Numbered from the stretch's first letter, positions 5,786 to 29,580 are shown. The stretch is DNA of 64,000 bases from Clostridia bacterium (GCA_017532425.1 JAFXJH010000019.1:1029-65028); one strand, 5' to 3'. The notes: generated by a model from the letters alone, not told the origin. A program made the numbers and translations.

Positions 5786-5811
5786 CATAAAACGAAAGGA
5801 TAAAATATAAA

Positions 5812-6531: not shown

Positions 6532-6540
6532 AAATAATAA

Positions 6541-6572
6541 AAAGACTGTTGCTTTGAGGCAACAGTCTTTTT
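6541..6572. terminator. Bidirectional terminator between the HAD gene (+) and aspS (-)
   Basis: AAAGACTGTTGC, loop tttgag, GCAACAGTCTTT. The 12-bp stem is flanked by A-runs and T-runs on both sides. Confidence 0.8.
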
Positions 6573-6585
6573 GTTATAGGTTATT

Positions 6586-8364: not shown

Positions 8365-8394
8365 AATATATCACTCCAAACGATTAATTATTTT

Positions 8395-9630: not shown

Positions 9631-9728
9631 GGGATTATTTTACTGTCCTTTCGGTTTATATAGTTGAGTTTTATGAAAAAATCAAGTGTATTTTCGCGGT
9701 ATTACCGATTAAAATACATATTCATATT

Positions 9729-9757
9729 ATTATAACAGAAAAGAGAACGCTTTTCAA
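9729..9757 (-). promoter_or_regulatory. sigma-A type promoter of hisS-aspS
   Basis: On the minus strand: TTGAAA (9757-9752), 17-nt spacer, TATAAT (9734-9729). This leaves a ~95-nt leader. Confidence 0.6.
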
Positions 9758-9779
9758 CAGTTTTTGTAAAAAAATAAAG

Positions 9780-10502
9780 CTAATTATCGCACTTTTTGCG
9801 CGTATTTATCTCACAAACGTGTAAAGTATCGCCGTTTACCGTAAAGCGCACGTCAAAACAGGAGTATTCAAAGCCGTAAATACGCTCGGGGTCGCTGTGA
9901 TAGGCGGGCCGAGGGTCACCGGCAAGTGCTTCGGTGAGGGCGTCTTGCTTGTCTTCGGGAATAAGCGCAAGAAGCTCGCTCGGAAAATCTACCTTGAGAA
10001 AATAATCCTTGGTCTGCGCTGTGAATCCGTCGGATGCATTCTCGCAGACGTCAACGTAGGGAAGGTAGGGCTTGATGTCGTATATCGGACTTTTGTCCAT
10101 AATATCCGCGCCCGAAACGATCAAAACGAGTCCGTCGGCAGTCTTTTCTATCCCTTCGAGCTTGACGCAGGTGAGACCGAGCGGATTTGGTCTGTAGGGC
10201 GCGCGGGTCGCAAAAACTCCCATACGCGTGTTGCCGCCGAGACGGGGAGGACGTACGGTAGGTGACCATTTTTCGCCGTACACCTCTGAAAATCCCCAAA
10301 TCAGCCAGAGATGAGAGTATCCCTCAATGCCGCGTAAAAGGTCGGGATTTTTGTAGTCGGGCTCGAAAACTATTTTTGATATCAGAGATGCGGAAAGTCC
10401 GCTCTGACGAGGAAGTCCGAATTTGGTGGGAAAATCGTTACGTATGCGTGCGACAGCCTTCAAGGTAAGGTCGAGGTCGGATGATTTTTCTCTTTCTTTC
10501 AT
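9780..10502 (-). CDS. trmO: tRNA (t6A37-N6)-methyltransferase TrmO (TsaA/YaeB family)
   Basis: Contains FGLPRQSGL, IEGYSHLWLIWGF and RPPRLGGNTRMGVFATRAPYRPNPLGLT. Confidence 0.8.
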   Translation of the reverse strand: MKEREKSSDLDLTLKAVARIRNDFPTKFGLPRQSGLSASLISKIVFEPDYKNPDLLRGIEGYSHLWLIWGFSEVYGEKWSPTVRPPRLGGNTRMGVFATRAPYRPNPLGLTCVKLEGIEKTADGLVLIVSGADIMDKSPIYDIKPYLPYVDVCENASDGFTAQTKDYFLKVDFPSELLALIPEDKQDALTEALAGDPRPAYHSDPERIYGFEYSCFDVRFTVNGDTLHVCEINTRKKCDN

Positions 10503-10529: not shown

Positions 10530-11327
10530 TTACTCTGCCTGATCGTGTCTTACCGCGCTGCTTCGGTAATCGGCGGGCGTCATTCCGGTGTAAGAGAGGA
10601 AGACACGGTTGAAATTTCGTATGCTCTGAAATCCGCTTTCAAGAGCTATGCTTGCAATACTGTCAGAGGTGTTTATAAGACGCTCCTTGGCGTTGTCTAT
10701 GCGGTAAAGATTTATGTACTTGCGAACATTTATCTTTACGTTCATACTGAATACCCTTGACAGATAATGAGGCTCGTATCCGAGCTCCTGCGCCATATTG
10801 ACAAGAGATATTTCTTCCTTGTATCTTTCGGAAATATAGCCGAGCATCCTGTGTATAAGCTCAGATCCCTCCTTTTTTGCCGAAACGAATTCGCTTTTTT
10901 CGTAGAAATCATTGCAAACGGCATAAAGCACGGCTTTTATTGCAAGAGGCGAACGCTTTTCTTTTTTTATACAGTATTCAATATAAAAATTTTTTACGTT
11001 TTCGTCGCAGTCGAAAATAGGGCAGACTGCATTTTTGCCGTGGATCAGCTTTGCAAAGAGGGGCACGTTGTCCTGCGAAAATACGTGTACGATAACACGG
11101 GTGTGACCGATGCTTTCGTATGAATGTATCATATTCGACAGCACGATCGCCATCTGACCGCGTTTTACGCTATATTCTTTGCTTTCTATTGTGAGGAGCA
11201 GCTCTCCTTCCTCCACGTATACAAGCTCGATGTCTCTGTGAAAATGGATAACGTAGCTAAAATCGCTGTATATCCGTATATCGTTGTTTGTAATTCCGCC
11301 CGAATTGTCTGTCTGGTATAAGATCAC
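10530..11327 (-). CDS. AraC-family transcriptional regulator (cupin sensor plus HTH)
   Basis: The C-terminal AraC HTH pair is MAQELGYEPHYLSRVF ... IASIALESGFQSIRNFNRVFLSYTGMTPADYR. The gene is divergent from the GRE1 operon. Confidence 0.9.
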   Translation of the reverse strand: MILYQTDNSGGITNNDIRIYSDFSYVIHFHRDIELVYVEEGELLLTIESKEYSVKRGQMAIVLSNMIHSYESIGHTRVIVHVFSQDNVPLFAKLIHGKNAVCPIFDCDENVKNFYIEYCIKKEKRSPLAIKAVLYAVCNDFYEKSEFVSAKKEGSELIHRMLGYISERYKEEISLVNMAQELGYEPHYLSRVFSMNVKINVRKYINLYRIDNAKERLINTSDSIASIALESGFQSIRNFNRVFLSYTGMTPADYRSSAVRHDQAE

Positions 11328-11584
11328 GATAATACCCCCGAAAGGTAAGAAGTGTAAAAAGATAATTTTTGTCTATTATTATATATTTTTTTGCTTTAAT
11401 TGTCAAGCACTTTTCTGTATAATGTAACTGATGGCAAATATGTCCGAAGCTGTAATAAAATAAGTATTTTACAGCATAATATAATAATTTTCTACTTAAA
11501 TTAGCTGTTCTTGTGCTATAATTAAAGTGAAAAGTCTTTTATTTCGTTTTGTACGCACCTTTGTGCGGAATATGAGGTGATTTT

Positions 11585-13546
11585 ATGTCGGATCTTAGAG
11601 AATTCTTACTAAACAAAAAGCATCACGCTTACAGAAAGCGTCTGCCCGAGACCTTGGCAGAAGAATATAAGAAGGCAGGTCTTGGCGACAGAGAGCGTAT
11701 GACCCGCCGCTTTGAGTATCTCATAAGCGAGGAAACTCCCGTGATACTTGAGGGCGAAAAGATCGTGTTTATAAGAACGGTAGAGAATATTCCAAACTGC
11801 TTTACCGAGGATGAATTTGACGAAATGCGTGAAAAATATTTTCTTCACGAGCTTGGATATATGTCCAATTTTTCGCCCGACTATGAGAGTGTTATAAAAA
11901 ACGGTCTGCTTTGGGTAAGAGATAAGGGAGACTCCTATCTTGCGCGTGAGATGGATGCGCTTATCGGACTTGTCGACAGATACCGCGAGGAAGCGCTCAG
12001 AATAGGACGCGACGACGTTGCAAGCGTACTTGAAAGAGTATCGAGATACGGTGCGCGCACATTTAGAGAGGCACTTCAGCTTTTCAGAATAATACACTTT
12101 GCGCTCTGGCTTGAAGGAAACTATCATAATACCTGCGGCAGATTCGATAAGTATATGTACCCCTATCTTAAGTCCGACCTTGACGCGGGAATTCTTGACG
12201 AAAACGAAGCACTTGAGCTTCTCGTCGACTTCTTCCTCTCGTTTAATAAGGACAGCGATACTTACGTCGGCGTACAGCAGGGCGATAACGGACAGAGTAT
12301 GGTGCTCGGCGGAATTGACAGCGAAGGAAACGAGACCTTTAATCTCCTTTCAAAGCTCTGCCTTGAGGCAAGCCGCAGAAATCTTCTCATCGACCCGAAG
12401 ATCAATCTGCGCGTTTCAAAAAATACTCCCGACGAGGTCTTCGAGCTCGGAAGCGAGCTGACAAAGGCAGGACTCGGATTACCTCAGTATTCAAACGACG
12501 ACGTAGTTATAGACGGTCTTGTAAAACTCGGCTATTCTCTTGAGGATGCACGCGACTACGCAGTTGCCGCTTGCTGGGAGTTCATAATCCCGAAATACGG
12601 CTTCGACGTGGCAAATATAGGCGCGCTCTCCTTCCCGAAGGTGATAGACCTTGCACTCCATACGGATAAAAAATTCGAAAGCTACGCAGATTTTGAAAAT
12701 ACCGTGTTTGAAAAGATACAGGAAGAATGTGACCGCATATGCGATGGCATAAAGAGCCTTTATTTCATACCGTCACCGATACTTATGAGTATGCTTGAGC
12801 CAAAATATCACAATTTCGGTTTGCACGGAACGGGAATAGCGACCGCGGCTGACTCTCTTGCGGCTATTGAAAAATATGTGTTCAGTGATAAAAAGCTTAC
12901 TTTTGATGAGCTGAAAACTGCGGTAGATAATGATTTTGAGGGCGACCCCGAGCTTCTTCATATGCTCAGATACGATTCTCCGAAAATGGGACAGAATCGC
13001 CCCGAGGCAGACGAAAAAGCAGTAAAGCTTCTCGCAAAATTTGCGGAAAGCCTCAAAGGAAAGAAAAACTGCGAGGGCGGAATATTCCGCGCGGGAACGG
13101 GCTCGGCAATGTTCTACCTTTGGCACGCCGCTGAAATAGGCGCATCTCCCGACGGAAGAAGAAAGGGCGAGCCCTTCGGAACAAACTTCTCGCCCAGCCT
13201 TTTCGCACGTATAGACGGTCCCTTCTCGCTGATATCCTCTTTTACAAAGCCCGAGCTTAAAGACGCAATAAACGGCGGCCCTCTGACGGTCGAGTTTGCT
13301 TCTTCGATGTTTTCGGACAGCGAGAGCGTTAAAAAGGTGGCAATGCTTGTGAAAGCCTTTATCGGAATGGGCGGACATCAGATACAGCTCAATACCGTAA
13401 ACCTCGACGTGCTTCGCGACGCGCAGGAAAATCCCGAGCTTCACAGACAGCTTGTCGTGCGTATCTGGGGATGGAGCGCATATTTCGTCGAGCTCGACCG
13501 AGAGTTCCAAAATCACGTTATGAAGCGTAAGGAGTATAGCCTGTGA
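11585..13546 (+). CDS. Glycyl radical enzyme (PFL2/dehydratase-like clade), short form (653 aa), unknown substrate
   Basis: C-terminal glycine-radical segment is QLVVRIWGWSAYFVEL. Candidate Cys loop is YAVAACWEF (C-x-E). ASPDGRRKGEPFGTNFSP and GGHQIQLNTV are typical of GRE barrels. RBS GAGGTGA is upstream. Confidence 0.85.
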   Translation: MSDLREFLLNKKHHAYRKRLPETLAEEYKKAGLGDRERMTRRFEYLISEETPVILEGEKIVFIRTVENIPNCFTEDEFDEMREKYFLHELGYMSNFSPDYESVIKNGLLWVRDKGDSYLAREMDALIGLVDRYREEALRIGRDDVASVLERVSRYGARTFREALQLFRIIHFALWLEGNYHNTCGRFDKYMYPYLKSDLDAGILDENEALELLVDFFLSFNKDSDTYVGVQQGDNGQSMVLGGIDSEGNETFNLLSKLCLEASRRNLLIDPKINLRVSKNTPDEVFELGSELTKAGLGLPQYSNDDVVIDGLVKLGYSLEDARDYAVAACWEFIIPKYGFDVANIGALSFPKVIDLALHTDKKFESYADFENTVFEKIQEECDRICDGIKSLYFIPSPILMSMLEPKYHNFGLHGTGIATAADSLAAIEKYVFSDKKLTFDELKTAVDNDFEGDPELLHMLRYDSPKMGQNRPEADEKAVKLLAKFAESLKGKKNCEGGIFRAGTGSAMFYLWHAAEIGASPDGRRKGEPFGTNFSPSLFARIDGPFSLISSFTKPELKDAINGGPLTVEFASSMFSDSESVKKVAMLVKAFIGMGGHQIQLNTVNLDVLRDAQENPELHRQLVVRIWGWSAYFVELDREFQNHVMKRKEYSL

Positions 13547-14322
13547 ACGGAAAAATATTCGATATAAAGGAATTTTCCGTGCATGACGGACCGGGCGGAC
13601 GAATAACAGTCTTTCTTAAAGGCTGTCCGCTGAAATGTCTGTGGTGTCATAACCCCGAAGGTCAGTCGCTTGAAAGCGAGCTTATGGTAAAGAGATCCTT
13701 TTGTAAGGGATGCGGAGCCTGCGTGAGAAATAAAGAAAGCGAGACCTATAAAAAATACGGCAGAGACGTTAGCGCTTGCCCCGAAAACCTTATATCGGTG
13801 GTCGGAAAAGAGTATACGCCGAGCGAGCTTGCCGATAAGATAATATCGTATAAGCCTCTGCTCGATGCGATGGGCGGCGGAGTTACCTTCAGCGGCGGCG
13901 AGCCTCTTATGCAGTACGAATTTTTGTCGGAGTGTGCAGATATTTTGCGCGAAAACGGCGTGCATATCGCACTTGAAACCTGCGGATTTGCAAAAAGCAA
14001 GGTCTTTACAGAGATACTTGCCAAGGTAGACTACGTGATGTACGATATAAAAATAATGGATAGCGAAAAGCATAAGCTCTATACCGGCTGTCCGAATGAG
14101 ATAATTCTGCAAAACGCAGAGCTTCTCAAAAAGAGCGGCGTTCCGTTTGTTTTCCGTACACCAATGATTCCCAATATCACGGATACACGTGATAATCTTG
14201 AAAGAATAGAAGAATTCACCAAAGGCTTCAGCTGGGAAAAGATACCGTATAATGAGCTTGCAGGAGCGAAATATCCGCATCTTGACAGAACTTATTCGCT
14301 TGAGATAAGCGAGAAAATATAA
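13543..14322 (+). CDS. Glycyl-radical enzyme activating protein (radical SAM)
   Basis: Contains SVHDGPGGRITVFLKGCPLKCLWCHNPE (CxxxCxxC) plus an extra Cys cluster CKGCGACV..ACPE. The GTG start overlaps the GRE1 stop codon (GTGA). Confidence 0.9.
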   Translation: MNGKIFDIKEFSVHDGPGGRITVFLKGCPLKCLWCHNPEGQSLESELMVKRSFCKGCGACVRNKESETYKKYGRDVSACPENLISVVGKEYTPSELADKIISYKPLLDAMGGGVTFSGGEPLMQYEFLSECADILRENGVHIALETCGFAKSKVFTEILAKVDYVMYDIKIMDSEKHKLYTGCPNEIILQNAELLKKSGVPFVFRTPMIPNITDTRDNLERIEEFTKGFSWEKIPYNELAGAKYPHLDRTYSLEISEKI

Positions 14323-14350
14323 TTTGAGATTAACGAAAGGACTTGAAACT

Positions 14351-15814
14351 ATGAAAAAAGTATATCTTGTAATACCCGAAAAAATAGGAAGAATAGCTCC
14401 CGAGGTCTACGGACATTTCTCCGAGCATATCGGCGGAGTGTTTTATGACGGAGTTTACGTAGGCAAGGATTCGGACGTGCCCAATATACGCGGCTTCCGT
14501 AAGGAGATAATAGAAAAGCTCAGAGATATAGCGCCTCCTGTGCTTCGTTGGCCGGGCGGATGCTACGCAGAGGTTTACCGCTGGCGCGACGGTATCGGTG
14601 AAAACCGTCCGACACGTCCGAGCTGGTGGACAAGAGACGACGGAAGATACGAGTCCAACGAGGTAGGAACTCACGAATTTATGGATTTCTGTGAGCTTAT
14701 TGGCGCAAAGCCTTATTTTGCAATGAACGTTACGTCGATAACTCCTATGGATGCACGTGATTGGATGGACTACTGCCTCTCACCGAAGGGAAGCACGACA
14801 CTTGCTCTCGAGCGTGAAAAGAACGGTCATCCGGAACCATTCGATATCCCTTATTGGGGCGTAGGAAACGAAAACTGGGGTGGCGGCGGTCATATGACTC
14901 CAGATTACTATGCTCTTGAATACCGTAAATTCTCAACGATAATGTATAATACGGTTCCCCGCGGACAGCACGTTGATCTTATCGCAGGCGGAGCTAACGG
15001 CGGCGATATCAGATGGACGGATGCGCTCGTAAAGGGACTTGAAAACTGCGGTGCTCCCGTGCACGGAATGTCCTTCCATTACTACTGCGGTAAAGCAGGC
15101 GACCCCGTGAACTTCACAGAGGATGAATGGTATCAGCTTCTCGACAGATCCGAGGTTATGGAAGAGCTGATTGTACGCCACTATGCAGGCGCGCAGGCTA
15201 AGAAGATGGAAGGCAAGCTGAAGCTCGTTATCGACGAGTGGGGATGCTGGCATCCCGACGGATCGGGCCCGAGCAAGGGATATAACCTCTTCGAGCAGCA
15301 GTCCACAATGCGCGACGCTATGGTATCCGCGCTTACTCTCAATATTTTCAACAATCATTGCGAAAAGATCAAGATGGCAAACGTTGCACAGCTTTGTAAT
15401 AATCTGCACGCGCTCTTCCTTGCAGGCGGAGAAAACTGCATAACCACGCCTACCTATCACGTCTTCAAGATGTATAAGGAGCATCAGGGCGCAGACGCAG
15501 TAAGATGCGTTACCGAAAATAACAGCGATCGCAGAAGCGCGATATCTGTTTCGGCATCCGAAAAGAACGGCTATCTGACAGTTACACTTGCAAACCGCAG
15601 CTGCACAGAGGACGCAGAGATCAGCCTCGAAGCACTCGGCGCAAGCGTTGAGGCAAATGCAAAGGCAATGCTTCTTGCAGAGGACGATATGCACGCGCAT
15701 AATACCTTTGAGGATCCCGAAAGAGTAACGATCAAGGAACTCGACGTTGACGTTTCAAAGCCGATAACTCTTCCCAAGGCGGGAATTATGAGCATTTCAA
15801 TTAAGCTTGCATAA
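14351..15814 (+). CDS. abfA: GH51 alpha-L-arabinofuranosidase
   Basis: Contains IAPEVYGHFSEHIGG, LRWPGGCYAEVYRWRDGIG and WGVGNENWG. ATG at 14351 follows GAAAGGA; the ORF-track TTG at 14324 lacks an RBS. Confidence 0.85.
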   Translation: MKKVYLVIPEKIGRIAPEVYGHFSEHIGGVFYDGVYVGKDSDVPNIRGFRKEIIEKLRDIAPPVLRWPGGCYAEVYRWRDGIGENRPTRPSWWTRDDGRYESNEVGTHEFMDFCELIGAKPYFAMNVTSITPMDARDWMDYCLSPKGSTTLALEREKNGHPEPFDIPYWGVGNENWGGGGHMTPDYYALEYRKFSTIMYNTVPRGQHVDLIAGGANGGDIRWTDALVKGLENCGAPVHGMSFHYYCGKAGDPVNFTEDEWYQLLDRSEVMEELIVRHYAGAQAKKMEGKLKLVIDEWGCWHPDGSGPSKGYNLFEQQSTMRDAMVSALTLNIFNNHCEKIKMANVAQLCNNLHALFLAGGENCITTPTYHVFKMYKEHQGADAVRCVTENNSDRRSAISVSASEKNGYLTVTLANRSCTEDAEISLEALGASVEANAKAMLLAEDDMHAHNTFEDPERVTIKELDVDVSKPITLPKAGIMSISIKLA

Positions 15815-20389: not shown

Positions 20390-22153
20390 TCAGTTTGCTT
20401 CCTTGATGGAATACTTGTTTCTGTACTCGGTGTACTTGATTCTGAAGTAGTTGTTGTCACCTGATTTTACAGCTTGCAGATACTCGTGAGAATCGAAGTT
20501 CATAGAAGCAACGTCGATTATCGAAACCGCAACGTTGGAGCAGTGGTCGGATACACGTTCGATATTGTTAAGGAAATCGGCAAGAACGAAGCCGTATTCT
20601 ATTGTGCACTGACCCTTCTGCAAACGCATAATGTGATTTGCACGAACCTCTGCGATGATGTCGTCGATAACCTCTTCAAGAGGCTCGATCTGGGTAGCGC
20701 ACTCAACGCTGTCCTCGGTGAATGCCTTGAGAGTGAGTGAAAGTATATCACGAATAGCTTCCTTGAGCACGGAAAGCTCGCGCTTTGCTGTGGGAGAGAA
20801 GTCGATCTTCTTTTCGTGGATCTCTTTTGCAACGTCTGCAAGATTTACAGCGTGGTCTCCGATACGCTCAAAGTCGCCGATACAGTGGAGAAGCTGTGCG
20901 GCACGTTGGCTGTCCGCATCGGATATGCTCTTACCAGAGAGCTTTACGATGTAGGATCCGAGCTTGTCCTCATATCTGTCGAGCACGTCTTCCTTAAGAA
21001 GAATATCGTCGGCACCGTCGGAAGAATATTTGTCGGTGAGCGCTACAGAGGAGATAAGAGTTTCAACCGATATTTCAGCCATCTTGCTTGTGGCGTTCTG
21101 ACATTCGGAAAGCGCAAACGAGGGAGTAGCGAGAAGTCTTTCGTCGATAAGAACCTCTTCAACCTTGTTTTCTTCTCCGCGAACGACCTTTTCGGCGATC
21201 TTGATAAGAAGCTTCGAGAAGGGAAGAAGGATGACAGTTACAGATACGTTGAACAAGCTGTGGAATATAGCAATTCCGAGCTCGTTGATAGGAGCATCGA
21301 GGATGGGCGCGCGGAAAATGAGATCGGCGATATAATAAGCGATAAGATAAACGACAGTACCGATTATATTAAAGGAAATGTGAAGAACGGAAACACGCTT
21401 TGCGTTCTTGTTTACACCGATACTCGAGATAAGAGAGGTTACACAAGTACCGATATTCTGTCCGAGGATGATCGGAATAGCCATTCCAAATGTAACGTTT
21501 CCCGAGCCTGCGAGAGTTATAAGAATACCTACAGAAGCGGCAGAGCTCTGAATTATACCGGTGAACGCCGTGCTGATAAGTACGGCAACAATGGGGTTCT
21601 TGAAAACAGAGAGGAACTGGTCGAAGTTGTCAAGCTCGGTAAGAGGCTTCATCGCGTCGCTCATAAGGGACATACCTGTCATAAGAACAGAGAATCCGAC
21701 GAGGATCATACCGATATCTTTTGTCTTCTGCTTTTTGGAAGCCATTATCATAAGAATACCTATGAAAGCGGCGATGGGAGCGAACGAAGAAGGCTTGAGA
21801 AGGTCGATAAATATGTTTCCGCCTTCAAGACCGACAAGTGAGAGAAGCCAAGCGGTAAGGGTCGTACCGATGTTTGAACCCATAATAACGCTTACAGTCT
21901 GCTGGAACTGCATAACGCCCGAGTTTACAAGACCTACGAGCATAACAGTCAGAGCGGATGAGGACTGTATAGCTACGGTTATACCCGCACCGAGAGCAAG
22001 TCCCTTGAAAATATTTGAAGTCATTTTACCGAGGGCGCGTTCAAGACTGCCACCCGTCATTTTTTCAAGTCCCGAGGACATTATAGTCATACCGTAAAGG
22101 AAGAACGCAACGCCGCCGAGAAGGCCTATTATAGCAAAAATAACAGTTTCCAT
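20390..22153 (-). CDS. Na+/phosphate cotransporter (NptA-like) fused to PhoU-like domains
   Basis: METVIFAIIGLLGGVAFFLYGM.. is the NaPi-II N-terminus. The C-terminal ~220 aa are helical and PhoU-like (IGDFERIGDHAVN, LNNIERVSDHCSN). ATG at 22153 follows AGGTAGGAAA; the ORF-track TTG at 22228 has no RBS. Confidence 0.8.
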   Translation of the reverse strand: METVIFAIIGLLGGVAFFLYGMTIMSSGLEKMTGGSLERALGKMTSNIFKGLALGAGITVAIQSSSALTVMLVGLVNSGVMQFQQTVSVIMGSNIGTTLTAWLLSLVGLEGGNIFIDLLKPSSFAPIAAFIGILMIMASKKQKTKDIGMILVGFSVLMTGMSLMSDAMKPLTELDNFDQFLSVFKNPIVAVLISTAFTGIIQSSAASVGILITLAGSGNVTFGMAIPIILGQNIGTCVTSLISSIGVNKNAKRVSVLHISFNIIGTVVYLIAYYIADLIFRAPILDAPINELGIAIFHSLFNVSVTVILLPFSKLLIKIAEKVVRGEENKVEEVLIDERLLATPSFALSECQNATSKMAEISVETLISSVALTDKYSSDGADDILLKEDVLDRYEDKLGSYIVKLSGKSISDADSQRAAQLLHCIGDFERIGDHAVNLADVAKEIHEKKIDFSPTAKRELSVLKEAIRDILSLTLKAFTEDSVECATQIEPLEEVIDDIIAEVRANHIMRLQKGQCTIEYGFVLADFLNNIERVSDHCSNVAVSIIDVASMNFDSHEYLQAVKSGDNNYFRIKYTEYRNKYSIKEAN

Positions 22154-22211
22154 AATTTTCCTACCTATAAATTTGAATTTAAAATAATCCATTACAATTT
22201 TATAAAAAAAA

Positions 22212-22252
22212 TGTGAACGTGTGCTCAAATTGCAGTTAAATCTAAGTTAAAT
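22212..22252 (-). promoter_or_regulatory. Candidate Pho-box-like direct repeats upstream of the Na/Pi transporter
   Basis: On the minus strand, ATTTAACT occurs twice with 11-bp phasing (22252-22245 and 22241-22234), followed by TTCACA (22217-22212) and a TATAAA. This periodicity is typical for OmpR/PhoB-family sites. Confidence 0.3.
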
Positions 22253-22426
22253 ATTTATTGCCGAAAAATGAACAAAGATGACGAAAATTGTTAAAACAGG
22301 CAAAAACGACGACTTGTTTCGCATTTTGGAAAAATATTGTTTGAGATGTATAAAATATCCTGAAAGCGGCTATTTTAAATATGATAAAATTACGCGGTAT
22401 TTCCGTTTGTATGAAAGGTGTTTGAT

Positions 22427-22579
22427 ATGGAAAAAATGAAAAAAGCAATGGAAAAAAAGGAAATGAAAATTCTTCTCTCCGTGGTGCTGGCTGTAGTTGC
22501 CGTAAGCGTTATGATGTGTACATTTAAGCTTGTCAGCCGTAAGAAAAAGCGTAAAAAGCTCGCGCAGGGAGAAATGTAA
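22427..22579 (+). CDS. Possible 50-aa single-pass membrane peptide
   Basis: MEKMKKAMEKKEMKILLSVVLAVVAVSVMMCTFKLVSRKKKRKKLAQGEM. GAAAGGTG lies 6 nt upstream of the ATG. The ORF is below the ORF-track size cutoff. Confidence 0.35.
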   Translation: MEKMKKAMEKKEMKILLSVVLAVVAVSVMMCTFKLVSRKKKRKKLAQGEM

Positions 22580-22597
22580 GAGAATTTTCAAACAAAA

Positions 22598-22958
22598 CAC
22601 CGTCATATCAAACGATACGACGGTGCGTAGGAAGACAAAATATTTTAGAAAATCCGGTAGCCAAGGAAAGGGGATTGGAGTCTGAGGAAAGGGGAAAAAC
22701 TTCGGCGTTTGAGATGGTTTTTCCCTTTCCTCAGTCAAACAGAACGATTTTGTCTGCATTTTACACCGTCATATCAAACGATATGACGGTACGTACGGAA
22801 GACAAAATATTTTAGAAAATCCGGTAGCCAAGGAATGGGGGTAGGAGTCTGAGAAAAGGGAAAAAACTTCGGCATTTGAGATGGTTTTTCCCATTCCTCA
22901 GTCAAACAGAACGATTTTGTCTACATTTTATACCGTCATATCAAACGATATGACGGTA
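22598..22958. repeat. 166-167-nt structured tandem repeat (2 full units plus a third copy of the leading hairpin)
   Basis: The hairpin ACCGTCATAT-caaacg-ATATGACGGT occurs at 22598-22625, 22765-22790 and 22931-22958. Each unit also has a closing stem AGACAAAAT/ATTTTGTCT and internal GGGAAAAAC/GTTTTTCCC hairpins. Confidence 0.85.
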
Positions 22959-22965
22959 TTTTACT

Positions 22966-23778
22966 TTAATTTTTGTTGAGAATCGATTTTATATCTTCAA
23001 AATCGGCATCGCTTACAAGAGCCTCGTCGCCGAGAGTGTACTCACGTCCGAGCATCTCGTACTTGTGAAGTCCGAGCTCGTGATATTTCAGCGCTTCTAT
23101 CTTTTCGATATTCGGGAATCGGTCAAGAAATTCTTTTATCTGCATAACGTCCTCTTTGCTTGCATTAAAGGTGTTGACAACAGGAATTCTTACCCAAATC
23201 TTTGCACCGCACTGATAGAGCCTCTCAAAATTCTCAAGGATAGTGCGGTTAGACATACCCGTGAATTTTTTGTGTTGCTCGTCATTCAGCGTTTTGATAT
23301 CGTAAAGAAATAGGGAAGCGTAGGGAATAAGCTTTTCGATGTTCGAAAATTCAACCGCACCGCAGGTATCGATAGCGACCGAAATACCGTGCTCTGCAAG
23401 CTTTTTCGTGCATTCGAGGATAAAATCGCTTTGAAGCAGACATTCTCCGCCCGAGAATGTCACTCCGCCTGTGTCCGAGAAAAAGTCGGCATCAGCAAGC
23501 AAAAGCTTCACAAGAGCGTCAGATGTGTACTCCTTGCCGTATGCGACAAGCGCGCCCGCGGGGCATACCTCTGCACCGTCAACTCTGCTTTTGTCCGCAC
23601 AGCTTTTGCAGGAAATGCATTTTCTCGGATCATACATAACGGACGTATCGCGAGTCAGACCCTCGGGATTCTGACACCACGCGCATCTCAGAGGGCATCC
23701 CTTCATAAATACCGTGGTGCGTACACCCGGTCCGTCGTGTAACGAGCATCTTTGAATGTTAAAAACTCTACCTGTCAT
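22966..23778 (-). CDS. Glycyl-radical enzyme activating protein (radical SAM)
   Basis: Contains SLHDGPGVRTTVFMKGCPLRCAWCQNPE plus the ferredoxin-like cluster CISCKSCADK..CPAGAL. Confidence 0.9.
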   Translation of the reverse strand: MTGRVFNIQRCSLHDGPGVRTTVFMKGCPLRCAWCQNPEGLTRDTSVMYDPRKCISCKSCADKSRVDGAEVCPAGALVAYGKEYTSDALVKLLLADADFFSDTGGVTFSGGECLLQSDFILECTKKLAEHGISVAIDTCGAVEFSNIEKLIPYASLFLYDIKTLNDEQHKKFTGMSNRTILENFERLYQCGAKIWVRIPVVNTFNASKEDVMQIKEFLDRFPNIEKIEALKYHELGLHKYEMLGREYTLGDEALVSDADFEDIKSILNKN

Positions 23779-23785
23779 AGCTTTA

Positions 23786-24736
23786 TCAGAAGTTTGCGTA
23801 TGTCAGCTTCCTCAGGATCTCCTCGTCGAGAACATATTCGGACATAAGGAGGTTTTCTTTGAGGTGATCGATGTTGGAGGAAGAGAAGAGCGGAACGATG
23901 GTAGGACGGTTCGGGAGTCTGTCAGAGCCGATAAGCCAAGCGAGAACGAGAGCGGAGGGTGCAAGACCGAGCTCCTTTGCGCTGTCAAGAAGAACGTTAA
24001 GACGTTCGTCTATCTGATACTTTCCGGGCATTCTCGCGATATTATCATATCCGCCGCCTGCAAGACAGGAGTAGGGAACGAGAGGTATATTGTTTTCTGC
24101 AAGATAGTGAAGTCTTTCTTCGGTGGCGTTTACGTTATAGGTGTAATTGAGCTTTGCTCCGCCTTTTGTGTAAAGATAGGTGTAGCAGGGCTGGTTTACC
24201 GTGAAATCAGCAAAGCCGTTCTTTTCGGCGATATGCTTTGCTTCGCACATACGCCATGTATAATAGTTGCTCGCACCGATAGCGCGTACCTTGCCCTTCT
24301 TTATAAGCTTATCAAAAGCCTCCATCGTTTCTTCGATGGGAGTGTTCATATCGTCGCTGTGAGCGTAGTAGAGGTCGATATAATCTGTTCCGAGCTTGCG
24401 AAGACTTTCGTCGCACCAGTACTCGATCTGCTTTGCGGAAAGTCCCGCGCCCTCGCCGTGACGGTCAAAGCCGACCTTTGTAGCGATAACGAGCTTGTCG
24501 CGTCCGCCTCTTTCCTTCAGCCATTTACCGAGCAGAGTTTCGCTCTCGTCGCCCGATGCACCCGGCCACCAGTGTGCATAGTTGTTGGATGTGTCGAGGA
24601 AGTTTCCTCCCATATCTACGAAAAGATCAAGCTGCTCGAAAGAATCCTTTTCGCTTGTTTTAGTGCCGAACATCATAGTTCCGAGACACATATTGCTGAC
24701 TTCAAGTCCTGCGCGTTCAAATTTTACTTTTTTCAT
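23786..24736 (-). CDS. Aldo/keto reductase family oxidoreductase
   Basis: Contains LGTMMFG, FLDTSNNY, IATKVG, IDLYYAHSDD and VRAIGASNY, which carry the AKR D-Y-K-H tetrad positions. Confidence 0.85.
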   Translation of the reverse strand: MKKVKFERAGLEVSNMCLGTMMFGTKTSEKDSFEQLDLFVDMGGNFLDTSNNYAHWWPGASGDESETLLGKWLKERGGRDKLVIATKVGFDRHGEGAGLSAKQIEYWCDESLRKLGTDYIDLYYAHSDDMNTPIEETMEAFDKLIKKGKVRAIGASNYYTWRMCEAKHIAEKNGFADFTVNQPCYTYLYTKGGAKLNYTYNVNATEERLHYLAENNIPLVPYSCLAGGGYDNIARMPGKYQIDERLNVLLDSAKELGLAPSALVLAWLIGSDRLPNRPTIVPLFSSSNIDHLKENLLMSEYVLDEEILRKLTYANF

Positions 24737-24763
24737 TTTTGTACCTGCCTTTCCTGAGGTTAT

Positions 24764-24793
24764 GAAGCTTTGAGGCGAAGGTCACAAAGCTTC
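24764..24793 (-). other. Intercistronic stem-loop between GRE2 and the AKR gene
   Basis: GAAGCTTTG (24764-24772) pairs with CAAAGCTTC (24785-24793): 9 bp with a 12-nt loop and no U-tract. Confidence 0.4.
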
Positions 24794-24809
24794 TGCCATT
24801 GTTTTATTT

Positions 24810-26996
24810 TCAGAATGTATTTCTTGAGATGAGATCGTCCTGTGCCTTTTTGCACATATCGACGAATACTGCGCTGTATCCGGTTACGCGTACCATAAGA
24901 TCGCGGTACATATCCGGTTTTTTCTGTGCGTCGAGCAGAAGCTCCTTGTCTACAGAGCTGAGCTGTATCTGAAGTCCGCCCTTTTCAAAATATACCGCAA
25001 TAATGTGAGAAAGATTTTCGAGTCCTGCTTCGCCATCGAAATTTCTGGGCTGTATCGTTACGTTAAGAGCGCCCGAAGCAAACTGATCGAAGGGGATATT
25101 TGAAATAGAGGAGAGCATAGCCGTGATACCGTTCTTTGCCGCGCCGACAGAGGGCTGACAGTTCTGACAGATGGGATCGCCTATGCGTCTTCCGTCGGGA
25201 GTTGCGGGAATGACCTCGCCGCGAGGAATGTGCCACGTGTCGTTCTCCGTGCAGAAGCGGAGCTTGAGGAAGGACGGGCGGTCCTTTGACGCATCCTTGC
25301 AGGCGTTTACTATAGCTTTGGTAAGCTCTCTTGCATAGTAGGATGAGGTGTCGTGACCGTCCCCCATCTTCGGAGAGTTCTTGCAAAGCGCTAAAAGAAC
25401 TTGGTCGTTTTCAAAGTTCGTGTCACACGCTGTGAATATTCTTTCGGCAGAGATATTCTTTTCGTTTATGAGATAATCCACAGCAGATGCTATATCTATC
25501 ATAGTGCCTATGCCGCCGAAGGGAACGACAAGGTTGGTGTTCTGAAAATACAGACCGCCTCTTGAAATGTTTTCAAAAGTAAAGCAGGAGCAGAATCTCA
25601 GCTGATTCGGATTAAAGTAGGGTTCCTTCAGCGTGGATTTCGAAATAAGCTCGGAGAATTTACCGAAGAACGTGTCGTAAATAGACTTCAACATTCCCTC
25701 TCGTGAGAACTCGCGTCCGTTTTCAAAGCTTGCACGGATAGCCTCCATAAGGGTGGGAATAAGACAGCGTTCAACACCGTAGTAGAATACATGATAGTTG
25801 GGAGCGTCCTTCGCGGGGATCGTCGGCCAGTTGCATCCGTAAAACTCGTGCGAGAGCGCATCGTATTCGCTTTCACCGAAGCTTTTGTACATTTCGCAAA
25901 CGCTGATGTCGTTGTAGACCATGATAGAGCCGCTTGCGCGCATCTTCGAAACGAGGGTCTTCCATACGTCGGCGTGATCCTTTGCAAAATCTCTTGTGTA
26001 ACGGAAAACGATGACCGGATTTTTGTATTTCGGATGTATGCGCTCGACCATAAGCTCTGTAAGACCGTTGCATACCGTCTTCTTGGTTTCAGGGTCAGTA
26101 CCCGAAAGAATAAGATACTGCGGAGCGTCGTAGCAGAGGATTCTGTGCCATCCCGTGCAGTTGGGAGAGTTTTCGCGGTTTGATATCTGATGCTCTCCGC
26201 GTCCCATAATGAGGTTGTTCTTGGCGTAGAATTCTTCTATAAGAAGGGCAGCCGTTTCTCTGTCTATACTGCCTTCGGAAAGCTCTTTTTCATATATCTT
26301 GTTCATAAAAAGATCGAGTCTTCCGAGCGCAAGAGTCGGGTTTGGTGAAATGTAGGCGCAGAATATAAATTCAATCGACCATACGAGCTGAAAAGCGGCG
26401 TGCAGAGTTTGCGGAGCGCCGGAAGCTGCCTCTCTGCAGGCTTTTGCCGAATCAAGCAGACCTTTTGCCTCGGCGGCTTCTGCGGAGCGCTCGATAAAGC
26501 AGATGATAGATTCGTATATCATTATTGCGCCGCGCAGGAAGCTGCATTTTTCCTCACAGCCCTGCTCGGTGTATATTTTAAGAGACTTTTCTGCCTCTGC
26601 CTTGAGGGCGGGAAGACCCTTTTCTATTATATCCTTCCAGAGGAATGACTGATGTCCTGCGTCGAAAAAGAATTTCGGAATACCCTCGTTTTTCATAAGA
26701 GGGGTTATATATTTTTCGCGGAAAGCCTTTTCCTCATCCTCATTAAAGGACTCCTCAACCATACGTCCGATAAGAATATCGTTTTCGCTGACAGGAATCG
26801 AAACTCGCGATAAAAACGCCTTGAGCGCGTTGCCGAGCTTGAGAGGCTGATTTTCAATATCCTTTACCTCCTCGCATATCTCGCTCCAAAGGCGGACACG
26901 CTCGGATGAATAGGTTACTACAGGCTTTTTTGTAAGGGCATAGATAGCCTCTTTTTGCATATTTTCTCTTAAAAAATCAAAGTTTTCTCTGTTCAT
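24810..26996 (-). CDS. Glycyl radical enzyme (PFL2-like), 728 aa, unknown substrate
   Basis: Glycine-radical segment DLMVRVTGYSAVFVDM. Contains ATPDGRRIGDP and GGLQIQLSSV. Candidate Cys loop EFYGCNWPT. ATG at 26996 follows AAGGAGA; the ORF-track start at 27092 adds 32 implausible residues. Confidence 0.85.
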   Translation of the reverse strand: MNRENFDFLRENMQKEAIYALTKKPVVTYSSERVRLWSEICEEVKDIENQPLKLGNALKAFLSRVSIPVSENDILIGRMVEESFNEDEEKAFREKYITPLMKNEGIPKFFFDAGHQSFLWKDIIEKGLPALKAEAEKSLKIYTEQGCEEKCSFLRGAIMIYESIICFIERSAEAAEAKGLLDSAKACREAASGAPQTLHAAFQLVWSIEFIFCAYISPNPTLALGRLDLFMNKIYEKELSEGSIDRETAALLIEEFYAKNNLIMGRGEHQISNRENSPNCTGWHRILCYDAPQYLILSGTDPETKKTVCNGLTELMVERIHPKYKNPVIVFRYTRDFAKDHADVWKTLVSKMRASGSIMVYNDISVCEMYKSFGESEYDALSHEFYGCNWPTIPAKDAPNYHVFYYGVERCLIPTLMEAIRASFENGREFSREGMLKSIYDTFFGKFSELISKSTLKEPYFNPNQLRFCSCFTFENISRGGLYFQNTNLVVPFGGIGTMIDIASAVDYLINEKNISAERIFTACDTNFENDQVLLALCKNSPKMGDGHDTSSYYARELTKAIVNACKDASKDRPSFLKLRFCTENDTWHIPRGEVIPATPDGRRIGDPICQNCQPSVGAAKNGITAMLSSISNIPFDQFASGALNVTIQPRNFDGEAGLENLSHIIAVYFEKGGLQIQLSSVDKELLLDAQKKPDMYRDLMVRVTGYSAVFVDMCKKAQDDLISRNTF

Positions 26997-27259
26997 AGTA
27001 TGATCTCCTTGCATAGAGAATATGGGCATAGGTGTGATAGATAAAGACACTTTACACCCATTTAAGTATACCACATAAAAAATAAAAGTCAATTATCTGC
27101 AAAAATATTTAAAAAATTTTTCACTACATAAAAGTATATCTTAAACTTAATAAAATTGACTTGATTTTTTTATAAATATAGGTTATATTTTATATATAGA
27201 ATGTCTGCGTATACGTTTTGGCAGATATTATAAACGTTTTTGAAAGAGATCTGATACAA

Positions 27260-28639
27260 ATGTTGAAACTTTTCAGAAAAAATAAAGCATTTTGCAAGGC
27301 TGATAAGCTGACCTATGGCCTTCCGATAGAGAAGAATTTTTCTCCGAAGGGAATATACCTTTCCGTGTCAGAGACCTGCGTGTCTGTCGGTGAAGAGGTC
27401 GGCATAGGCTCGCTTGTCGGTAAGAATTCGGACGGAGCGTCCGTGTGCTCGGGTATTTCGGGAAAAATATCTGAGATCAAAAAGATATCCGATAGCAAGT
27501 ACGGCGTAAATATAGAAAACGATCTTGCAAAAAGACAAGGCGAATATCTCCGTCCCTTCGGCGAGGAAAACAATATAAGGGTTACCGATATCACACCCGA
27601 AATGCTGATAAGCGTTATGAAAAAGGCGTCGGTAAAAACTCGTGGACATCAGATATCGGCAAACGATCGCACGGTATTTCAGAGAATTGAGGATTCGTTT
27701 GGAAAAGCAAGACAGATAGTGATAAACTGCGTTGGCGGCGAGCCTTACGACAGCTCTTTTAAGCGCATTATGCTTGAAAACGCATCTGACGTAATAAACG
27801 GTATGAAGCTCGTTATGGCGGTTATGAAGATAGGAGAGGGCGTTCTTCTTCTCGACTCGGAGAGCAGTGAATGTGCAAATACGCTTTCGTCGATGCTTGC
27901 CCCAAAAGACAATATAAAGGTCGTTCTTGCAGATATGGCTTATCCCACGGATAACGAGCATAACGTGATATACACACTCACGTCGATAGAGATTTCGCGC
28001 AAAAGAAGCGCAGAGCGTGTTGGGTGCGTGGTATTTGATCTGCATGAGATACTTGCCGTTGCAAGAGCTTTTATTTACGGCGAGGTCGAGACCTGCGAAA
28101 TAATCACAGTATCGGGAGACGCGCTTTCAAAGCCGATGAATCTGAAGGTTCCTTACGGAACGAAAATATCCGAAATAGCCGACTACTGCGGAGTGAATAA
28201 GGATATCGACGTCAAGATTATCGCAGGCGGAGTCTTGCGCGGCAAAGAGGTCGGCACAGAGGATGTTTTTGAAGTCGGAATGTCACCTTTGGTATTACTG
28301 AACGCAAAAAAGATACCTTCATTTAACGGTGTGAGATGTATGAGATGCGGCTCGTGTATGCGCGCCTGCCCGATGCTTCTTATGCCTATGTATCTCAGCC
28401 TTTCGGGATTTTCGGGTGTCAAAGCATTCGGAAAAATGTTTGATATAAGCGCGTGCACCGAGTGCGGAGTCTGTCAGTACGTTTGCCCCGCGGGAATACC
28501 GATACTGAAGAATATACGCAGGATGAAGGACACCTTGCTGCCCGATACGGCAGATGAAAATGATAAAACTGCAGAAAATAAGCCCGAAAAAGAAGAAAAT
28601 AGCGAAAAATCGCAGGACGTCGGAGGTGACAAGCAATGA
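27260..28639 (+). CDS. RnfC-like protein (barrel-sandwich N-terminus, SLBB-like middle, 2x[4Fe-4S] ferredoxin C-terminus)
   Basis: Contains CMRCGSCMRACP and CTECGVCQYVCPAGIP, plus INCVGGEPYDSS (compare INGAECEPY in RnfC). ATG at 27260 follows GAAAGAG; the alternative TTG at 27218 has no RBS. Confidence 0.65.
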   Translation: MLKLFRKNKAFCKADKLTYGLPIEKNFSPKGIYLSVSETCVSVGEEVGIGSLVGKNSDGASVCSGISGKISEIKKISDSKYGVNIENDLAKRQGEYLRPFGEENNIRVTDITPEMLISVMKKASVKTRGHQISANDRTVFQRIEDSFGKARQIVINCVGGEPYDSSFKRIMLENASDVINGMKLVMAVMKIGEGVLLLDSESSECANTLSSMLAPKDNIKVVLADMAYPTDNEHNVIYTLTSIEISRKRSAERVGCVVFDLHEILAVARAFIYGEVETCEIITVSGDALSKPMNLKVPYGTKISEIADYCGVNKDIDVKIIAGGVLRGKEVGTEDVFEVGMSPLVLLNAKKIPSFNGVRCMRCGSCMRACPMLLMPMYLSLSGFSGVKAFGKMFDISACTECGVCQYVCPAGIPILKNIRRMKDTLLPDTADENDKTAENKPEKEENSEKSQDVGGDKQ

Positions 28640-29580
28640 CTAAAAAGGAATACGTTGTATGCCCTCCGTATGCCTCGAGCAGAGGCGACATAAGAGACCT
28701 TGACGTTTTGGTGGCTCTTATTCCTATCGTCGCTTGGGCGGTCTTTATGTTTGGCTGGAGCTCGATGCTTTTCGTTGCTGTCGGCGTAGCATCAAGCGTC
28801 GTCTTTGAGATGGTCGTCGAGCTTTTTCTGTTTAAGAAAATAGGATACGGAGTTGTGAACGCGGCTCTTACAGGACTTCTGATATCGCTGTCCGTGTCTC
28901 CGAATGCACCGGTATGGCTTCCCGTGCTCGGAAGCGCGGTGGCAATATTCGTCGCAAAATATCAGTTTGTCGTGCTCGCGGAGTACGGAAGCTTTTTCTC
29001 GCCTGCGGCTCTCGGTATGCTTATATGCGGAGTTTATCCCGAAAACGAGCATGCTTTCGTGGACGGTCTGCGAAACGCACTTTATCCCGAGGACGGAATG
29101 CTTAACGTATTTCTCGGTAATACCGAGGGAGCTCTCGGCACGGTATCCGCACTTTTGCTCGCATTTGCGGCAATATATCTCTTGCTCAGAGGAGCACTTT
29201 CATTTAAAACGGTGCTGTCCGCACTTGTCGTTATGTCAGCAATGTCACTTATGATCGTTCCTGCGTGGACTACGTTTTCCGATAATATGATATATCAGAT
29301 CATAGGCGGAGGATTTTTGTTCTATCTCGTGTTTGCGGCAGGTGACCGTATGGGCTCTCCCGTTACCGAAATGGGTAAGCTTGTCTACGGCGCGGGATTT
29401 GCGGCCCTCGTATTCGTTTTTCGATTCTATACAGACCTTCCCGCGTGTGAAGCTATGAGTGCGGTAATAATGAGTATACTTACTCCCGTGATTGATTTGT
29501 ATACAAGACAGTCACCCTTCGGCGGAGTTGTGCGCACCGCGAAACCAGAGAATGACACGCCTGCAAAATCAAAGAAATAA
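28636..29580 (+). CDS. RnfD/NqrB-like polytopic membrane protein
   Basis: Contains NTEGALGTVSALLLAFAAIYLLLRG and FAAGDRMGSPVTEMGK (compare GSLGE.SAL...L.R and ATD.VTSP in RnfD). The ATGA start/stop overlaps the RnfC-like gene. Confidence 0.6.
   Translation: MTKKEYVVCPPYASSRGDIRDLDVLVALIPIVAWAVFMFGWSSMLFVAVGVASSVVFEMVVELFLFKKIGYGVVNAALTGLLISLSVSPNAPVWLPVLGSAVAIFVAKYQFVVLAEYGSFFSPAALGMLICGVYPENEHAFVDGLRNALYPEDGMLNVFLGNTEGALGTVSALLLAFAAIYLLLRGALSFKTVLSALVVMSAMSLMIVPAWTTFSDNMIYQIIGGGFLFYLVFAAGDRMGSPVTEMGKLVYGAGFAALVFVFRFYTDLPACEAMSAVIMSILTPVIDLYTRQSPFGGVVRTAKPENDTPAKSKK

Follow-up and report, generated by a model that had tools for sequence, protein, structure and literature searches.

A clostridial glycyl radical enzyme family with a Cys-Asn-Trp loop and an aldo/keto reductase partner departs from the Cys-X-Glu rule

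We analysed a window of 64,000 nucleotides from a Clostridia bacterium genome (GCA_017532425.1 JAFXJH010000019.1:1029-65028), which carries on its minus strand, at 22966-26996, three co-directional genes: a glycyl radical enzyme (GRE), which we call GRE2, followed by an aldo/keto reductase (AKR) and a GRE activase. Judged by its motifs and their conservation, the operon encodes an intact, conserved glycyl radical system. GRE2 carries Trp in place of the Glu that lies two residues past the catalytic Cys (the CXE motif) in eliminase-type GREs. Its family is a real, well-conserved and apparently uncharacterised departure from the CXE rule, and one that probably performs new chemistry on a plant-derived sugar. 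A more specific scheme, which we hold tentatively and slightly short of even confidence, is that the GRE, with the help of a relocated base, turns a free sugar-like substrate into a carbonyl compound, which the AKR then reduces.

A scan of one genome per species returned 204 relatives, of which 79 loci were kept, and conservation is counted below over 80 GRE sequences drawn from these loci. Nearly all of them come from metagenome-assembled genomes (MAGs) of gut or rumen Clostridia (Oscillospiraceae, Eubacteriales and Christensenella), with three from Planctomycetota. Hosts of relatives include Ruminococcaceae bacterium OttesenSCG-928-L11, the lineage of Christensenella sp. UBA1259 and Candidatus Neoclostridium roslinense. 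GRE2 (24810-26996, minus strand; 728 residues) is assigned by its sequence to the GRE superfamily (PFL-like, IPR004184), having a PFL-like barrel, a C-terminal glycyl radical domain with the RVxG[FWY] signature, a catalytic Cys and, close by, an activase of the CX3CX2C type. It matches PF02901 with 119 bits and PF01228 with 80 bits, the latter at the glycyl radical motif R703-V-T-G706-Y-S708 (24873-24890, minus strand), in which both Arg703 and Gly706 are present in 80/80 sequences. An earlier sequence-only reading of this stretch had reported a 728-residue protein with the string RVTGYSAVF; it is there in the DNA, with the Gly706 codon at 24881-24879. Aminoacyl radical enzymes have Ala, Ser or Thr instead of the radical Gly (PMC11528403); as Gly706 is present throughout the family, GRE2 is not one of these. 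An AlphaFold2 model of GRE2, built on an alignment of 30 homologues spanning 37-87% identity (alignment A1), has the GRE barrel fold, with a mean predicted local distance difference test score (pLDDT) of 90.3 and a predicted template-modelling score of 0.92.

The central feature of GRE2 is its Cys loop. In characterised enzymes the Glu of the CXE motif hydrogen-bonds or deprotonates a substrate hydroxyl (PMC13450708). The loop of GRE2 reads EFYGCNWPT in the DNA, its tip being G387-C388-N389-W390 (25827-25838, minus strand), and there is no acidic residue at any of the eight positions that follow Cys388. The A1 profile, searched against the Protein Data Bank (PDB) with hmmsearch, aligns end to end with solved GREs and places G-C-N-W on the G-C-V-E of glycerol dehydratase (GD; Cys433/Glu435), CutC, HpzG (8iof) and propanediol dehydratase (PD), and on the G-C-I-E of HplG; the structures aligned at this tip are 1r8w, 8iof, 9f3w, 7vua and 5i2a. 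An hhalign comparison with a profile of 18 canonical CXE GREs gave the same register (100% probability, 712 columns), and the model puts G-C-N at the tip of a beta-hairpin. Cys388 is present in 80/80 sequences and is the only invariant Cys of the family, and Asn389 (77/80) and Trp390 (75/80) are nearly as constant; the three of 80 sequences that have Glu at the second position after the Cys are other GRE families encoded in the same loci. Cys388 is thus the predicted thiyl-radical residue, and Trp390 stands where CXE enzymes have their catalytic Glu.

The sequence-only reading had named EFYGCNWPT as the best candidate loop and left the choice between a faulty alignment by eye and a mechanistically distinct clade. 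Its caution is explained by the behaviour of the region, which is hard to align from a single sequence: a phmmer search of the PDB with GRE2 left residues 261-475 unaligned to the top matches shown. If GRE2 were simply a CXE eliminase of the ordinary kind, or belonged to a characterised family, and its Cys loop had been misaligned, this difficulty would be accounted for. We regard that explanation as extremely improbable, given that three independent profile alignments agree on the register of Cys388 and Trp390, that no Glu or Asp occurs in the next eight residues, that Cys388 is the sole invariant Cys and sits with Gly and Asn at the hairpin tip of the model, and that family-level scores, given below, fall far under their cutoffs. 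The structure-based alignment that the reading proposed as a check thus put the catalytic Cys nowhere else and revealed no C-x-E, and it is the distinct clade that stands.

A search of 1.84 billion cluster representatives with the family profile showed how far this loop extends. All full-length matches above about 560 bits combine G/P/A-C-N-[W/H/R/D/A] with [GSA]-x-G-E-H-Q, where x is Arg in all but two. A tier at 300-500 bits also lacks the Glu; its loops are C-N-N, C-N-D, C-C-x or C-S-x, in most cases accompanied by S-E-N-Q, and canonical G-C-V-E enzymes surface only at about 320 bits and below. By these sequence tiers, GRE2 belongs to one well-defined family, itself part of a larger radiation of short GREs (about 715-790 residues) without CXE, and loss of the Glu is real and ancestral to the GRE2 family.

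GRE2 also lies outside every characterised GRE family; membership of one was the other outcome that could have undone the distinct-clade reading. On NCBIfam models its scores are 5- to 15-fold under the equivalog cutoffs: 186 bits against 1100 for HypD, 145 against 1050 for CutC, 180 against 1000 for HpsG, 64 against 994 for PFL (TIGR01255), and 98 against 1150 (NF033715) and 125 against 1100 (NF033718) for decarboxylase models (HPAD, IAD, PhdB). The TIGR01774 model of the PFL2/glycerol dehydratase subfamily gives 206 bits against a cutoff of 678. A decarboxylase would, in addition, leave the AKR partner without a carbonyl product to act on. Foldseek with the GRE2 model matched all eliminase and isomerase structures at a template-modelling (TM) score of about 0.75 and 17-21% identity, with no single closest structure, and identity to every solved GRE stays in that same range. 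In profile searches of the PDB, E-values were 1e-87 to 1e-70 for eliminases and isomerases (1e-87 for GD), 1e-43 to 1e-45 for the X-succinate synthases (BSS) and 1e-27 for PFL, which places GRE2, as far as profile similarity goes, closer overall to the 1,2-eliminase/isomerase branch than to other GRE classes. It lacks the CXE motif that defines the 1,2-eliminases (GD, PD, CutC, HypD and IslA) and the isomerases (YbiW, PflD and HplG), and it retains the beta1 His of the 1,2-eliminases (His115). Small conserved open reading frames (ORFs) of the kind that encode X-succinate synthase accessory subunits do not recur beside the GRE in the related loci, nor does any kinase, phosphotransferase system (PTS) or aldolase recur in the 79 neighbourhoods. 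A June 2026 review (PMC13450708) recognises seven GRE classes, with whole clades still unannotated. It records CXE as kept in all six C-O eliminases, CutC, the C-S lyases and three isomerases, confines the Cys pair to PFL and TdcE, and includes no characterised GRE of the C-N-W type. Our literature searches for the pairing of a GRE with an AKR, the C-N-W motif or a comparable enzyme found nothing relevant.

Beyond the Cys loop, the active site appears to have been extensively remodelled. Residue correspondences here come from alignment to published structures, not from distances in the model. On beta1, G114-H115 (26652-26657, minus strand) is retained: His115, present in 79/80 sequences, aligns with His164 of glycerol dehydratase (1r8w), the acid that protonates the leaving hydroxyl (PMC13450708), and this His is the partner of the Glu in eliminases (GD His164, HypD His160). 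The Asp of the GRxD motif is, by comparison with canonical GREs, universal. The N219-P220-T221 motif aligns with His281-Ser282 of glycerol dehydratase and with the region of the catalytic Asp278 of HypD; Asp278 itself falls on Pro220, so that Asp228 of GRE2, which we had considered as its counterpart, was rejected. From the connector between beta2 and beta3, GD, CutC and PD draw an active-site Phe and HypD draws Ser334 (PMC7077986); in GRE2 this connector is about 11 residues longer than in eliminases and carries a motif that canonical GREs do not have, K259-N-N-L-I-M-G-R-G-E268-H269-Q270...R285...D290-A-P-Q-Y294 (26115-26222, minus strand). Most of its positions are conserved in 77-79 of the 80 sequences; G-R-G-E-H-Q (265-270) stands at 77/80 and D290-A-P-Q-Y294 at 69-79/80 (Ala291 at 69, the other four positions at 75-79). 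On beta8, the motif D586-T-W-H589 (25230-25241, minus strand), aligned to 6vxc with a construct numbering offset of 20, sets Asp586 (77/80) on HypD Thr645, which hydrogen-bonds the substrate (PMC7077986); His589 is present in 73/80.

Three canonical substrate-contacting elements thus appear to be rebuilt in the GRE2 family, and Asp586 and the Glu268/His269 pair are candidates for the relocated base. The invariant residues specific to the family are Trp, Tyr, Asn, Gln, His, Asp and Arg, a mix of polar and aromatic side chains that, by analogy, is typical of carbohydrate-binding sites. Loss of the canonical catalytic Glu, together with a poorly modelled Gly loop, could also be taken to mean that GRE2 is a decaying or non-catalytic paralogue. 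Such decay is very improbable: 91 positions are at least 95% conserved across orthologues that are 35-85% identical, among them Gly706, Cys388 and the family-specific motifs; a dedicated activase and AKR are retained behind a strong predicted promoter, with a ribosome-binding site present; and the family occurs in about 200 species-level genomes. Misalignment and loss of catalysis are both, in our judgement, effectively excluded.

The partner genes are conserved too. The AKR (23786-24736, minus strand; 316 residues, NAD(P)H-dependent) matches PF00248 with 206 bits and has the Asp-Tyr-Lys-His tetrad of its superfamily (Asp48, Tyr53, Lys87 and His126), which is invariant in 67/67 orthologues. 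An orthologue with 51-94% identity is encoded immediately downstream of the GRE, in the same direction, in 64 of the 73 loci with room for one; the GREs, at 35-85%, are less conserved. Starting instead from the AKR, four homologues (56-58% identical, on long contigs) were sampled: three directly follow a GRE of 740-744 residues, and one stands alone. The best PDB matches of the AKR, the deoxynivalenol 3-keto reductases DepB and AKR6D1, were rejected as a lead to its substrate because the alignment covers the N-terminal 185 residues only and is no closer than for AKRs in general, and because the PDB contains disproportionately many such entries. The activase (22966-23778, minus strand; 270 residues) is a radical SAM enzyme, its TIGR02494 score of 294.7 bits exceeding the cutoff of 174. 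It has the motif C28-x3-C32-x2-C35 and one auxiliary four-Cys motif (Cys54, Cys57, Cys60 and Cys72), and all seven Cys are conserved in 46/46 orthologues. Activases of eliminases are roughly 300 residues long and usually have two auxiliary clusters; that of GRE2 is shorter, with a single auxiliary motif.

Several observations point to a carbonyl product. Reductases or dehydrogenases that adjoin GD, PD, CutC and HypD act on the product of the GRE (as with GD and DhaT, or HypD and P5C reductase). With this precedent, the AKR with its invariant tetrad in 64/73 loci and the two aldehyde dehydrogenases that flank a more distant non-CXE GRE (locus L091, described below) indicate that the product of GRE2 is probably a carbonyl compound. 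The sequence-only reading had argued that a reductase within a GRE operon fits a dehydratase-type reaction. A comparison of neighbourhoods, which it had suggested, showed that the pairing recurs, and the dehydrogenases point the same way; the dehydratase chemistry itself we carry forward only as a proposal.

In the scheme we favour, the first steps would follow the general GRE mechanism, for which the motifs were checked here: the activase would place a radical on Gly706, which would hand it to Cys388, and the resulting thiyl radical would take a hydrogen atom from the substrate. This substrate would be a free, unphosphorylated sugar or a sugar-like polyol derived from plant glycans. Abstraction at a carbinol carbon might be followed by cleavage of the beta C-O bond with His115 as the acid, the missing Glu being replaced by a relocated base, for which Asp586 on beta8 or Glu268/His269 on the inserted loop are the candidates, while Trp390 may pack against the substrate ring. 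The carbonyl product would then be reduced by the co-transcribed, NAD(P)H-dependent AKR; overall, the pair would bring about a reductive deoxygenation or some comparable step that traps the carbonyl. A bolder version is possible but doubtful: the GCN(W) enzymes might form a new GRE class that acts on free plant sugars or cyclitols with non-CXE acid-base chemistry and, with the AKR, carries out a reductive deoxygenation like that of ribonucleotide reductase, by radical dehydration followed by NAD(P)H ketoreduction, as one branch of a non-CXE sugar-GRE radiation.

Circumstantially, the genomic context of the relatives suggests that the substrate is a free sugar, or resembles one, and that the product is a carbonyl compound. 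Among the 79 loci only two neighbours recur beyond the core genes: 17 loci have a co-directional transporter of the EamA/DMT type immediately upstream, and 19 have an AraC regulator at a distance of up to 4 kb. The transporter gives only weak matches at the SMR/DMT level on NCBIfam, too weak for a substrate to be named from them, and that attempt was abandoned. In loci without the AKR, the GRE lies beside a GH127 beta-L-arabinofuranosidase, a GH29 fucosidase, a heparinase II/III-like lyase, SGNH esterases and a sugar-binding protein; a GH43 gene is present at both L007 and L018, and genes for URO-D-like, GH32 and GH2 proteins occur near related GREs as well. We also looked up five more distant non-CXE relatives, two of which were uninformative. 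The other three sit with genes for a CUT2-type monosaccharide ABC transporter and encode GREs with C-N-N or C-N-D loops (L089, 5001-7250; L090, 1562-3901; L091, 6001-8271). L089 and L091 have a full set of binding protein, ATPase and permease directly upstream of the GRE, and L090 has two periplasmic binding-protein genes with a sensor kinase and AraC-type response-regulator pair. The GRE of L091 is further accompanied by its two flanking aldehyde dehydrogenases and a split transketolase. These three loci look like part of a wider, uncharacterised radiation of non-CXE sugar GREs. Taken together, the DMT and AraC neighbours, the glycoside hydrolases, the CUT2 operons and the invariant residues reminiscent of carbohydrate sites make a sugar the probable substrate.

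The same loci bear on the order in which the two enzymes act. The AKR might come first, reducing an aldose or ketose to an alditol or, as an aldose 1-dehydrogenase in reverse, yielding a lactone, with the GRE using that product. AKRs include aldose reductases and L-galactose/L-fucose-type 1-dehydrogenases, and L-galactose dehydrogenases are among the PDB matches of this AKR. One AKR homologue stands alone, and the loci without the AKR set the GRE directly beside sugar-releasing hydrolases, so that the GRE can evidently work without this AKR. We nevertheless consider this order distinctly unlikely, because in the characterised operons named above the adjacent oxidoreductase acts on the product of the GRE, because the aldehyde dehydrogenases paired with a related GRE would act only once a carbonyl had formed, and because dehydration of an alditol's terminal diol would be expected to keep the GD-type Glu.

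Whether GRE2 catalyses an elimination at all is a separate matter. It could belong to a different reaction class that has no need of a base on the Cys loop, such as radical cleavage of a C-C bond in a sugar, an isomerisation or epimerisation, or chemistry on a non-carbohydrate plant metabolite, with the AKR handling or detoxifying a fragment. The rebuilding of three canonical substrate-contacting elements, an identity of only 17-21% to any solved GRE, the whole radiation of short GREs with C-N-N, C-N-D, C-C-x and C-S-x loops, the split transketolase beside one relative and the fact that DMT transporters and AraC regulators are not sugar-specific all speak for this. Against it, the dehydratase-type His115 is kept, the top profile similarity is to eliminases, elimination is the simplest fit to a carbonyl-handling partner, and accessory subunits and CoA-handling genes were not found at the locus. 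On balance, we judge a different reaction class unlikely.

Other observations weigh against the reading that GRE2 uses a relocated base on a free sugar. Within the interior of the model, confidence is lowest at the inserted loop (residues 263-292; pLDDT 60-83), and the Gly loop falls below 50. That Asp586, Glu268/His269 and Trp390 face the substrate is predicted by alignment to positions in HypD, GD and IslA. The residue at the second position after the Cys is His, Arg, Asp, Asn or Ala in side branches, so Trp itself is unlikely to be chemically essential; its role is more likely to be packing than chemistry, and the Asn that precedes it is the steadier feature. No transporter or regulator lies next to the operon in the window, and the neighbourhoods vary beyond the GRE, AKR and activase, which leaves the sugar assignment circumstantial.

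The three genes form a single operon behind one strong predicted promoter, with the gene order and overall span that the sequence-only reading had given. GRE2 starts with the ATG at 26996, preceded 8 nt upstream by AGGAG; public gene callers choose an ATG 11 codons further up, giving 739 residues, and homologues begin at the position of the 728-residue start. About 70 nt upstream of the start, TTGACT and TATACT are separated by 16 nt, with a TG before the -10 hexamer (27065-27092, minus strand), which is the best sigma-70-like match in the region (10/12). The gaps between genes are 73 nt (GRE2-AKR) and 7 nt (AKR-activase). The first of these contains the 9-bp stem-loop already seen from the sequence (24764-24793, minus strand; arms 24793-24785 and 24772-24764, with a 12-nt loop). 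A U tail is missing, shuffled versions of the intergenic RNA fold about as well (z = -0.75) and orthologous loci have a spacer of only about 20-50 nt, so this hairpin carries little weight and was rejected as a regulatory terminator. An Rfam scan of 22000-27400 returned no match at E <= 1, and a riboswitch or leader RNA upstream of or between the operon genes was likewise dismissed. The probable end of the operon is a 13-bp hairpin directly after the activase stop (22930-22959). It belongs to the first of three tandem elements spaced by about 166 nt (22597-22962), each with a 13-bp hairpin (ACCGTCATATC...GATATGACGGT); two of the repeat units are 94% identical across 162 nt. An ORF of 333 codons antisense to the AKR gene (23756-24757, plus strand) recurs in eight other loci and was set aside as an artefact of codon bias.

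In the window the operon is flanked on one side by RnfC-like and RnfD-like genes and on the other by a Na/Pi cotransporter and a two-component system, an arrangement shared by near-identical metagenome contigs (L080 and L081). The RnfC-like (473 residues) and RnfD-like (314 residues) pair spans 27218-29580 on the plus strand, with no other Rnf subunits adjoining, and is followed by a TIGR01212-like radical SAM gene. Matching upstream genes lie beside the GRE in the close relatives L001, L009 and L010, the Pfam check applying to the RnfC-like gene of L001 only. At L007, two tandem GCNW paralogues (5754-10175; 47-48% identical to GRE2), with neither an AKR nor an activase next to them, adjoin a heparinase II/III-like lyase, GH43 and an SGNH esterase; the MAG concerned, SIG672, also holds an 85%-identical GRE2 orthologue with its AKR (L001). 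Small shell-like ORFs beside the GRE of L073 proved to be toxin-like and restriction-modification genes, and a link to microcompartments was rejected.

A second GRE, GRE1 (11585-13546, 653 residues), lies about 11 kb from GRE2, to which it is 24% identical; its Cys loop reads A-C-W-E and its glycyl motif, unusually, RIWGWS. The GRE1 activase (13543-14322), 36% identical to that of GRE2, overlaps GRE1 and is directly followed by a GH51 alpha-L-arabinofuranosidase (14324-15814), with a divergent AraC regulator at 10530-11327; as a whole (10530-15814), the locus seems to hold a further uncharacterised GRE linked to sugars. That two GRE systems lie within 15 kb of each other had been thought unusual, a view that did not hold up: several of the 79 loci have a second GRE within 8 kb. 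A nearby second GRE is found at L007 (the tandem pair), L020 and L070, and L018 and L039 share one contig.

These results matter chiefly for the way GRE function is predicted. All GREs known to break C-O, C-N or C-S bonds rely on the Glu of the Cys loop, and the CXE motif serves the field as the predictor of eliminase function. The GRE2 family is eliminase-like and keeps the radical machinery yet lacks the Glu, and so offers a concrete place to look for a relocated base or a new type of reaction. With its near-obligate AKR, candidate substrates could be screened directly by following NAD(P)H. From the sugar context, Clostridia of the herbivore and human gut would seem to process a plant cell-wall sugar anaerobically by a hitherto unrecognised route, and the analysis exposes a wider set of short non-CXE GREs, with three of five sampled loci being sugar-transport operons.

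Compared with known systems, GRE2 most resembles the GRE 1,2-eliminases (GD (1r8w), PD, CutC, HypD, HpzG/HypG and IslA/IseG/HpsG). It shares with them the ten-stranded barrel (TM about 0.75) with Gly and Cys finger loops, its best profile scores (E-values of 1e-87 to 1e-77), the beta1 His, the GRxD motif and a TIGR02494-type activase, and, as in the GD, PD and HypD operons, an oxidoreductase adjoins the GRE. Unlike them, it has C-N-W, the 11-residue connector insertion with GRGEHQ and the beta8 DTWH, it is about 60-100 residues shorter at the N terminus, and identity is only 17-21%. YbiW and PflD, which open the rings of 1,5-anhydroglucitol-6-phosphate and 1,5-anhydromannitol-6-phosphate, and HplG are to our knowledge the only characterised GREs that act on carbohydrates. 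These isomerases have the same fold (8id0 and 8yjo, TM 0.78) and make a ketone, but they keep CXE (Glu443, Glu433 and Glu429) where GRE2 has no Glu, and they use phosphorylated sugars with aldolases encoded downstream, whereas GRE2 has an AKR partner and no kinase, PTS or aldolase. PFL and TdcE belong to the same superfamily and likewise lack a Glu on the Cys loop; PFL, however, uses a Cys-Cys pair and CoA, whereas GRE2 has a single Cys and matches PFL (1e-27) only over the C-terminal third. The short non-CXE GREs, with C-N-N, C-N-D, C-C-x or C-S-x loops and S-E-N-Q, share with GRE2 a length of about 715-790 residues, the absence of a Cys-loop Glu, the terminal Tyr of a DAPQY-type motif and a sugar-transporter context; they differ in having neither GRGEHQ nor DTWH and, where sampled, no AKR partner, and none of them has been characterised.

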